Positions 47,060 through 48,764 of a stretch of 64,000 bases of DNA are shown here, piece by piece. The DNA comes from Ostreococcus lucimarinus (taxonomy: Eukaryota): NCBI GenBank assembly GCA_000092065.1, contig CP000581.1; one strand, 5' to 3'. The notes below the pieces were generated by a model. The model was not told the origin of the DNA and ran no database searches. It was given only the letters and a program-made list of their open reading frames with translations. Made by a program: the position numbers and the translations under genes. Positions within the stretch are counted from its first letter, which is position 1. The number at the start of each line of letters is the position of its first letter.

Positions 47060-48764
47060 TTACATGGCGAAAGCTTCCTCTGCGTCTTCTTCGTCGAATT
47101 CGCCTTCTTCCTCCGCGCTCGCGTCTTGGTACTGCTGGTACTCGGAAACCAAGTCGTTCATGTTCGATTCGGCTTCGGTGAACTCCATCTCGTCCATACC
47201 CTCTCCCGTGTACCAGTGCAAGAAAGCCTTGCGACGGAACATGGCGGTGAACGCCTCGCTGACACGCTTGAACATTTCTTGAATCGCCGTCGAGTTGCCG
47301 ATGAACGTGGACGACATCTTGAGACCCTTGGGGGGGATATCGCACACCGAACTCTTGACGTTGTTCGGAATCCACTCCACAAAGTACGAAGAGTTCTTGT
47401 TTTGGCAGTTCAAGAGTTGTTCGTCGACTTCCTTGGTGGACATGCGTCCGCGGAACAAGGCGGAGGCGGTGAGGTAACGGCCGTGACGCGGATCGGCGGC
47501 GCACATCATATTCTTTGCGTCCCACATTTGTTGCGTCAACTCCGGCACCGTGAGGGCGCGGTATTGCTGGGAACCACGGGACGTGAGAGGAGTGAACCCG
47601 ACCATGAAAAAGTGCAAGCGCGGGAACGGCACCAAGTTCACCGCGAGCTTGCGCAAGTCGGCGTTGAGCTGACCCGGGAAGCGCAAGCAGCACGTGACGC
47701 CGGACATGACGGCGGAGATCAAGTGGTTCAAATCACCAAACGTCGGCGTCGTGAGCTTTAGCGTGCGGAAGCAAATATCATAAAGTGCTTCGTTGTCAAG
47801 GATCATGCACTCATCGGCGTTTTCGACGAGCTGGTGCACAGAAAGTGTGGCGTTGTACGGCTCGACGACGGTATCCGACACCTTGGGCGACGGAACGACG
47901 GAAAACGTAAGCATCATGCGATCGGGGTACTCTTCGCGAATCTTCGAGATGAGAAGCGTACCCATACCGGAACCGGTACCGCCACCGAGAGAGTGGCACA
48001 TTTGGAAACCTTGCAAGCAGTCGCACGATTCAGCCTCCTTGCGCACGACGTCGAGCACGCCGTCGATCAACTCGGCGCCTTCGGTGTAGTGACCCTTCGC
48101 CCAGTTGTTTCCCGCACCGGTTTGCCCGAACACGAAGTTATCCGGTCGGAAGATTTGACCGTACGGCCCAGAGCGCACCGAATCCATGGTGCCCGGCTCG
48201 AGGTCCATGAGCACGGCGCGTGGCACGTAGCGACCTGCGCGAAAGACGGTTAAAAATACATTCGGCGCGTCGGTCAACGCGCGTACCTCCGGAAGCTTCG
48301 TTAAAGTACACGTTCACGCGTTCGAGCTGCAAATCAGCGTCTCCAGCGTACGTCCCAGTGGGATCGATCCCGTGTTCATCGCAAATAACCTAGTCACCAT
48401 CGATCGCGCACAAAGTCAGTCGAGCCGTCGCGCCTCGCCGCGTTCGAGTTGACTCGCGCCGAGCGTCTCGACTCTCCCGAGCGCCCGCGTTCGATCGCCG
48501 CCGCGCGCGCGCGCGCACCTCCCAGAACTTCGCCCCGATTTGGTTACCGCATTGGCCCGCTTGAATGTGCACGATTTCTCTGCGTCCGTCGTCCATCGTC
48601 GTCGTCAGTCCCGCGTCGGTTAATTTTAGCCTCGCCGTCATTGACTTTCCCTCGACGCGCGCGCGCGCGTCTCCCGCGCGTCCGTCGTCGTCGTCGCGCG
48701 CGCGCGCGCGTCGCTTCGCGTCTCGTCGTCGTCGCTTCGTCTCTCTTCGCCCGTCGCACCTCAT
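47060..48764 (-). CDS. TUBB: Beta-tubulin. The structure is join(48760..48764, 48519..48579, 48287..48389, 47060..48234).
   Basis: Exon 3 reads [57 protein letters not shown]. Exon 2 reads [35 protein letters not shown]. Exon 1b reads (R)[20 protein letters not shown]. The canonical MREI start is obtained only by splicing an ATGAG micro-exon at 48760..48764 (donor GTGCGA) to the ..GACGGACGCAG acceptor at 48580. The introns are 180, 129 and 52 nt. Confidence 0.85.
48580..48759 (-). other. Beta-tubulin intron 1 (180 nt), an introner-like family member.
   Basis: On the minus strand it starts GTGCGACGGGCG and ends GGGACTGACGACGACGATGGACGACGGACGCAG. The same terminal motifs as the PHF5A and p24 introns. 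Confidence 0.6.

Follow-up and report, generated by a model that had tools for sequence, protein, structure and literature searches.

The beta-tubulin gene of Ostreococcus lucimarinus almost certainly carries a U2-type GT-AG intron directly after its fifth coding base, the removal of which restores the Met-Arg-Glu-Ile (MREI) start of the protein. This explanation is based on the splice signals, on a spliced product that matches a public protein exactly, on orthologous gene structures and on natural variants in which the interval behaves as non-coding sequence. The gene lies on the minus strand, at 48764..47060, of the 64,000-nucleotide stretch of contig CP000581.1 that was analysed (hereafter the window, whose numbering is used throughout), and is divided into four exons by three introns (Table 1). 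When the exons are joined, the reading frame is restored at the GT/AG boundaries, giving a 1344-nt CDS with 447 uninterrupted codons and a 447-aa protein that starts with MREIVHIQ. The locus looks single-copy.

Table 1. Predicted structure of the beta-tubulin gene and its upstream region, with two further genes of the window (window coordinates)
Feature	Position	Strand	Length (nt)	Description
Divergent intergenic region	48765..48942	-	178	No ATG on the tubulin strand; upper bound is the glutaredoxin start at 48943 (+)
Exon 1, coding end ATGAG	48760..48764	-	5	Met plus bases 1 and 2 of the Arg-2 codon; no variation among 14 environmental contigs; annotated orthologous genes open with ATGCG
Intron 1	48580..48759	-	180	Phase 2; GTGCGA donor, ACTGAC at 48609..48604, CAG at 48582..48580; (CG)n and (GAC)n tracts inside
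Decoy in-frame ATG	48594..48596	-		Within intron 1; would yield MDDGRREIV
Exon 2	48519..48579	-	61	Opens with the third base of Arg-2; highly conserved with respect to O. tauri
Intron 2	48390..48518	-	129	Phase 0, after codon 22; GTGCGC...ACTGAC...TAG; position shared with O. tauri and B. prasinos
Exon 3	48287..48389	-	103	VICDEHG...NEASG
Intron 3	48235..48286	-	52	Phase 1, in codon 57; GTACGC...CAG
Exon 4	47060..48234	-	1175	TAA stop at 47062..47060; Pfam Tubulin and Tubulin_C
Glutaredoxin gene	48943-49821	+		Protein is an exact match to database entries
PHF5A/Rds3-like splicing-factor gene	16981-17614	+		Intron directly after the ATG
PHF5A-like, ATG	16981-16983	+		
PHF5A-like, first intron	16984-17149	+		
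PHF5A-like, exon	17150-17222	+		
PHF5A-like, second intron	17223-17351	+		
PHF5A-like, exon	17352-17614	+		

Both ends of intron 1, as proposed in a sequence-only reading of the same DNA, were confirmed to the base. Read on the minus strand, ATGAG runs straight into GTGCGACGGG, and at the acceptor ...GGACGCAG gives way to AGAAATCGTGCAC, the last base of the AG being 48580 and the first base of exon 2 being 48579 (the boundary reads ...GGGACTGACGACGACGATGGACGACGGACGCAG up to 48580 and AGAAATCGTGCACATTCAAGCG from 48579). ATGAG joined to AGAAATC makes ATG AGA GAA ATC, that is MREI, and the product is the public O. lucimarinus protein and aligns from residue 1 with solved beta-tubulins, in agreement with what that reading had claimed for the N-terminus. 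The ACTGAC at 48609..48604 conforms to the branch-site consensus CTRAY at about 25 nt from the 3' splice site, and only 24 copies of this hexamer are present in 128 kb. GTGCG donors and ACTGAC branch sites recur among the further introns verified in the window, namely the second and third of the tubulin gene and the first and second of the PHF5A-like gene, and by its signals intron 1 appears to be a canonical U2-type GT-AG spliceosomal intron. At introns or candidate introns near 17109, 28625 (+), 62235 and 48609 (-), ACTGAC is followed by a purine-rich (GAC)n tract and CAG, with no pyrimidine tract; those at 28625 and 62235 are candidates defined by sequence signals alone.

A chance origin of the ATGAG-GT site is unlikely. 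The motif ATGAGGTRMG occurs once in the whole window, both strands included, and that occurrence is the tubulin site; dinucleotide shuffles give an expectation of 0.27 per 128 kb, which puts the probability of a chance match in the ~365 nt preceding exon 2 at roughly 8e-4. In the 720 nt upstream there are only three ATGs on the tubulin strand (48764, 48641 and 48596), and a GT donor follows the one at 48764 alone. The ATG at 48596 had been described as the only one contiguous with exon 2; it is indeed contiguous and in frame, but it is not the only such ATG, since that at 48641 is in frame as well. The ATGAG placed about 170 nt upstream of it begins 168 nt away (48764 to 48596). No ATG is found on the tubulin strand in the 178 nt between the glutaredoxin start (48943, +) and 48764, and therefore 48764 is the first AUG of any transcript starting in the intergenic region. 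Because ATGAG opens with the first ATG downstream of the start of the neighbouring gene, it is most simply the end of a first exon. The 5-nt coding segment stands, but its description as a micro-exon is probably a misnomer, or at best a loose term, since these bases most likely close a first exon that also carries the 5'UTR, an intron within the 5'UTR being the less simple arrangement.

Since no Rfam family reached the gathering score in a search of the whole window and the predicted fold of intron 1 is not exceptional (z = -1.75), nothing points to an embedded RNA gene. A scan of JGI metagenome contigs for the spliced junction ATGAGAGAAATCGTGCACATTCA returned a single match, which is the tubulin of an unrelated, AT-rich eukaryote. 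This contig (L007, Ga0247648_1003589) holds an intronless beta-tubulin transcript or gene whose first 23 coding bases are those of the predicted spliced O. lucimarinus mRNA; it encodes a divergent tubulin that ends in a Gly/Asp/Glu-rich tail, and the organism is unrelated to O. lucimarinus.

An exact-sequence look-up in a collection of about 15 billion proteins showed that the spliced 447-aa protein is identical, residue for residue, to XP_001415922.1 / ABO94214.1 / UniProt A4RRL2 (O. lucimarinus CCE9901, "Tubulin beta chain"). There is no detectable difference between this public model and the product described here, and the identity of the junction can be deduced from the protein and the available ATGs: because 48764 is the only upstream ATG with a GT donor, the public CDS should, by elimination, use the junction 48760/48579. 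The protein matches PF00091 (Tubulin, 216 bits) and PF03953 (Tubulin_C, 137 bits), both far above the cut-offs, and its residues 1-442 align to residues 1-442 of 6u42_1 (Tubulin beta; E = 7e-300), as they do with dozens of other beta chains. In a homology search with the tubulin, most matches were cluster representatives or tubulins of the fused or long type, and a query of the contig index with the exact public protein gave no entry.

The annotated beta-tubulin genes of O. tauri and Bathycoccus prasinos were compared together with their flanks, using two assemblies of each species. In O. tauri (XP_022838197.1) the gene starts with ATGCG followed by the donor GTGCGT and resumes with GGAAATC after cag (acceptor ...GCGCGCAG, then exon 2 at GGAAATCGTG), and in B. 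prasinos it starts with ATGCG followed by GTAAGT and resumes with TGAAATC after cag (acceptor ...AACAACAG, then exon 2 at TGAAATCGTC); a Bathycoccus-like metagenome contig has the same arrangement of the first intron. All three species thus have a 5-base coding exon 1, ATGCG in O. tauri and B. prasinos versus ATGAG in O. lucimarinus, a GT-AG intron after coding base 5, and a CTGAC, which in O. tauri and B. prasinos as in O. lucimarinus falls 25-36 nt before the acceptor; they also share the second intron, which follows codon 22. The Arg codon split by the intron is AGA in O. lucimarinus, CGG in O. tauri and CGT in B. prasinos, and since Arg is kept by different split codons, both codon halves are under selection across the intron. 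The introns themselves measure 180, 146 and 282 nt, respectively, and are unrelated in sequence; between O. lucimarinus and O. tauri no meaningful alignment of intron 1 was obtained, whereas exon 2 is nearly identical. Because the same position is occupied by unrelated intron sequence in O. tauri and B. prasinos, the intron predates the separation of Ostreococcus and Bathycoccus. By this comparison of the two genera, the position after coding base 5 is old, while the intron sequence evolves freely. Literature searches for surveys of tubulin intron positions returned nothing directly usable.

RNA-seq and manual curation both went into the O. tauri v2 annotation, in which 89% of introns were validated (PMC4378021), and it provides indirect RNA support for the orthologous junction. 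Bathycoccus differs from O. lucimarinus in its GTAAGT donor and in being without intron 3. This third intron, in codon 57, is found in both O. lucimarinus and O. tauri and is missing from the Bathycoccus-like contig (L002, about 3540-3560). Chlamydomonas beta-tubulin genes have an intron at codon 57 too.

The same orthologues bear on whether translation could begin at the downstream ATG. If no first intron were in use and transcription began inside 48597..48759, translation from 48596 would give a protein starting MDDGRREIV, and this ATG, besides being in frame and contiguous with exon 2, has an A at -3 and a G at +4 and is unchanged in 14 environmental contigs. However, it is situated in the (GAC)n tract between the consensus ACTGAC branch site and the CAG acceptor, and of the three species compared only O. 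lucimarinus has the decoy, no ATG occupying the equivalent place in O. tauri or B. prasinos. In neither of these species is there any in-frame ATG contiguous with exon 2, a stop being reached upstream of EIVH first, and reading unspliced from the exon-1 ATG is frameshifted in O. tauri (146 nt) and stopped in B. prasinos; therefore splicing provides the only possible start in both. Moreover, the MDDGRREIV version has no exact match among the about 15 billion proteins searched, the public model being the MREI form, and every solved beta-tubulin aligned from residue 1 of that form. A start at 48596 is accordingly very improbable, and the claim that the MDDGRR codons are intron sequence is upheld, both by orthologues with the same exon 1/intron 1 layout and by natural variants in which the length of the interval is not a multiple of three.

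These variants come from 14 environmental O. lucimarinus-like contigs (L008-L021), which were found via the glutaredoxin protein and are almost identical to the window; members of the glutaredoxin cluster that differ in length (L018-L021) belong to the same species and added no more-diverged relatives. The coding bases of exon 1, the donor, the branch site, the acceptor and exons 2-3 are invariant in 14/14, and the few differences are confined to the intergenic region and to introns 1 and 2. Intron 1 is 178, 180, 181, 182, 183 or 184 nt long, as a result of slippage in its (CG)n/(GAC)n tracts, which make the region a length-polymorphic microsatellite. Because its length varies and breaks the frame while exons and splice signals stay invariant, the interval 48580..48759 is not coding. 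This finding weighs directly on the proposal that the interval is translated, through intron retention or lack of splicing, into a charged 60-residue N-terminal extension running to ...MDDGRREIV. The reference interval spans exactly 180 nt without a stop and continues the frame of the ATG at 48764, and an unspliced mRNA would yield a full-length, N-terminally extended tubulin; a stop-free stretch of 60 codons is, however, fairly frequent by chance at about 69% G+C (roughly 0.3 by our own estimate). In 5 of the 14 contigs the length is not a multiple of 3 (178, 181, 182 or 184 nt) and would shift the frame, with all exons identical, the orthologous intervals are frameshifted or full of stops, as described above, and the 507-aa intron-retained product found no match in the protein collection. 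We therefore give translation of the interval hardly any credence.

The sequence-only reading had further called intron 1 introner-like, and this part of it is not supported. In favour of a recent copy of a mobile, intron-generating repeat family of the kind known from Micromonas pusilla, GTGCG(CG)n starts and ACTGAC(GAC)n...GGACGCAG ends are common to intron 1 and other introns of the window. The most similar real intron in the window is the first intron of the PHF5A-like gene, which ends in ACTGAC(GAC)nGGACGCAG like tubulin intron 1. In a Smith-Waterman comparison, however, the similarity of these two introns was not above that of dinucleotide shuffles (z = 1.2), and a coding low-complexity control scored the same. 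Repeat finding and blastn over the 64-kb window, with and without the low-complexity filter, returned nothing but (CG)n/(GAC)n matches, at 60-80% identity and in part to coding sequence, and no repeat family with defined ends; the copy-number test covered 64 kb of the genome, a scope that limits the copy count and leaves the age argument unaffected. Intron 1 does resemble the introners of Micromonas and Aureococcus in being a short, GC-rich intron with similar-looking ends in a Mamiellales-type genome, but it differs from them in having no repeat family in the window and in a position common across genera, occupied in O. tauri and B. prasinos by unrelated sequence, unlike a lineage-specific recent insertion. 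Given matches of low complexity only, similarity at the level of shuffles and a position shared by two genera, a recent mobile-element insertion can be set aside as scarcely plausible.

Some features of the surrounding genes were also observed. The order glutamyl/glutaminyl-tRNA synthetase, glutaredoxin, beta-tubulin (window 47060-52342; L005/L006) is common to B. prasinos and not to O. tauri, the divergent glutaredoxin/tubulin promoter is present in both O. lucimarinus and B. prasinos, and at its 3' end the tubulin gene meets a convergent taxilin-like gene. Prokaryote-style gene calls on eukaryotic metagenome contigs have produced chimeric proteins (P0089/P0090/P0093; L001, L002): a 575-aa "tubulin" is a chimera in which Bathycoccus introns are read through in the wrong frame, and "glutaredoxins" of 396-421 aa come from an ORF antisense through tubulin intron 1 (window 48565-49821, +).

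A second start-adjacent intron of the window is found in the PHF5A/Rds3-like gene, where ATG is followed directly by GTGCGG (16981-16984) and the 112-aa spliced product aligns over 1-110, from residue 1, with human PHF5A. The two genes differ in the exact place of the intron, which in the PHF5A-like gene follows base 3 (phase 0) and in the tubulin gene base 5 (phase 2). In vertebrate alpha-tubulin genes the first exon encodes the initiator Met only, with the intron after base 3 in phase 0. Neither the exact PHF5A-like protein nor two versions starting at internal Met residues occur in the collection of 15 billion proteins, and therefore a public model of the gene may be lacking or may differ from this one. 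An automated search for further start-adjacent introns, in which a long second exon was required, gave two implausible low-complexity candidates only. Candidates at 4015 and 58090 were dropped, their ORFs being of 12 and 9 codons.

For the beta-tubulin gene, we propose that transcription would begin somewhere in the 178-nt intergenic region shared with glutaredoxin, which would hold the promoter, the transcription start and the 5'UTR of exon 1, and that exon 1 would consist of this 5'UTR and the first five coding bases, AUGAG. The spliceosome would then remove 48759..48580 by way of the GTGCG donor, the ACUGAC branch site and the CAG acceptor. The mature mRNA would open with AUG AGA GAA AUC, the split codon AGA specifying Arg, and the protein would start MREIVHIQ as in every other beta-tubulin, while the decoy AUG at 48596, in the 3' part of intron 1, would be spliced out and would not appear in the mature mRNA. 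Both the RNA junction used in O. lucimarinus and the transcription start are predictions from the genomic sequence.

In animal cells, the MREI/MREC motif of the nascent chain is recognised by TTC5 on ribosomes in tubulin autoregulation (PMC10403363). The likeness to this system is that the spliced O. lucimarinus protein carries MREI at its N-terminus; the difference is that the pathway has been demonstrated in animal cells, whereas in O. lucimarinus only the presence of the motif is shown, and neither TTC5 nor SCAPER is encoded in the 64-kb window. The conserved tubulin N-terminus may equally serve simply tubulin folding and the structure of the GTP site.

The start-adjacent intron is real but already known, as it is present in the public models of O. 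lucimarinus, O. tauri and B. prasinos, and it is an ordinary feature. Its significance beyond quality control is small: a start codon split from its gene can be recovered from raw sequence, and gene finders sometimes miss such starts. To this can be added a modest comparative point, namely that this intron, which follows coding base 5, is of ancient origin in the algal family and lies in a highly expressed gene. Introns interrupt no more than about 16-20% of the genes of O. lucimarinus and O. tauri and are over-represented among the highly expressed ones (PMC2367439; PMC4378021), and the three-intron, highly expressed beta-tubulin gene fits this reported excess (PMC2367439). Because the intron has been kept at the same base since before the split of Ostreococcus and Bathycoccus, while only about a fifth of genes in these very compact genomes have introns, we tentatively raise the idea, which we consider rather doubtful, that the codon-2 intron may persist because high expression depends on an intron close to the promoter, by way of intron-mediated enhancement or of splicing-coupled export. 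If this were true, the position of the intron right after the AUG would be functional and not accidental.
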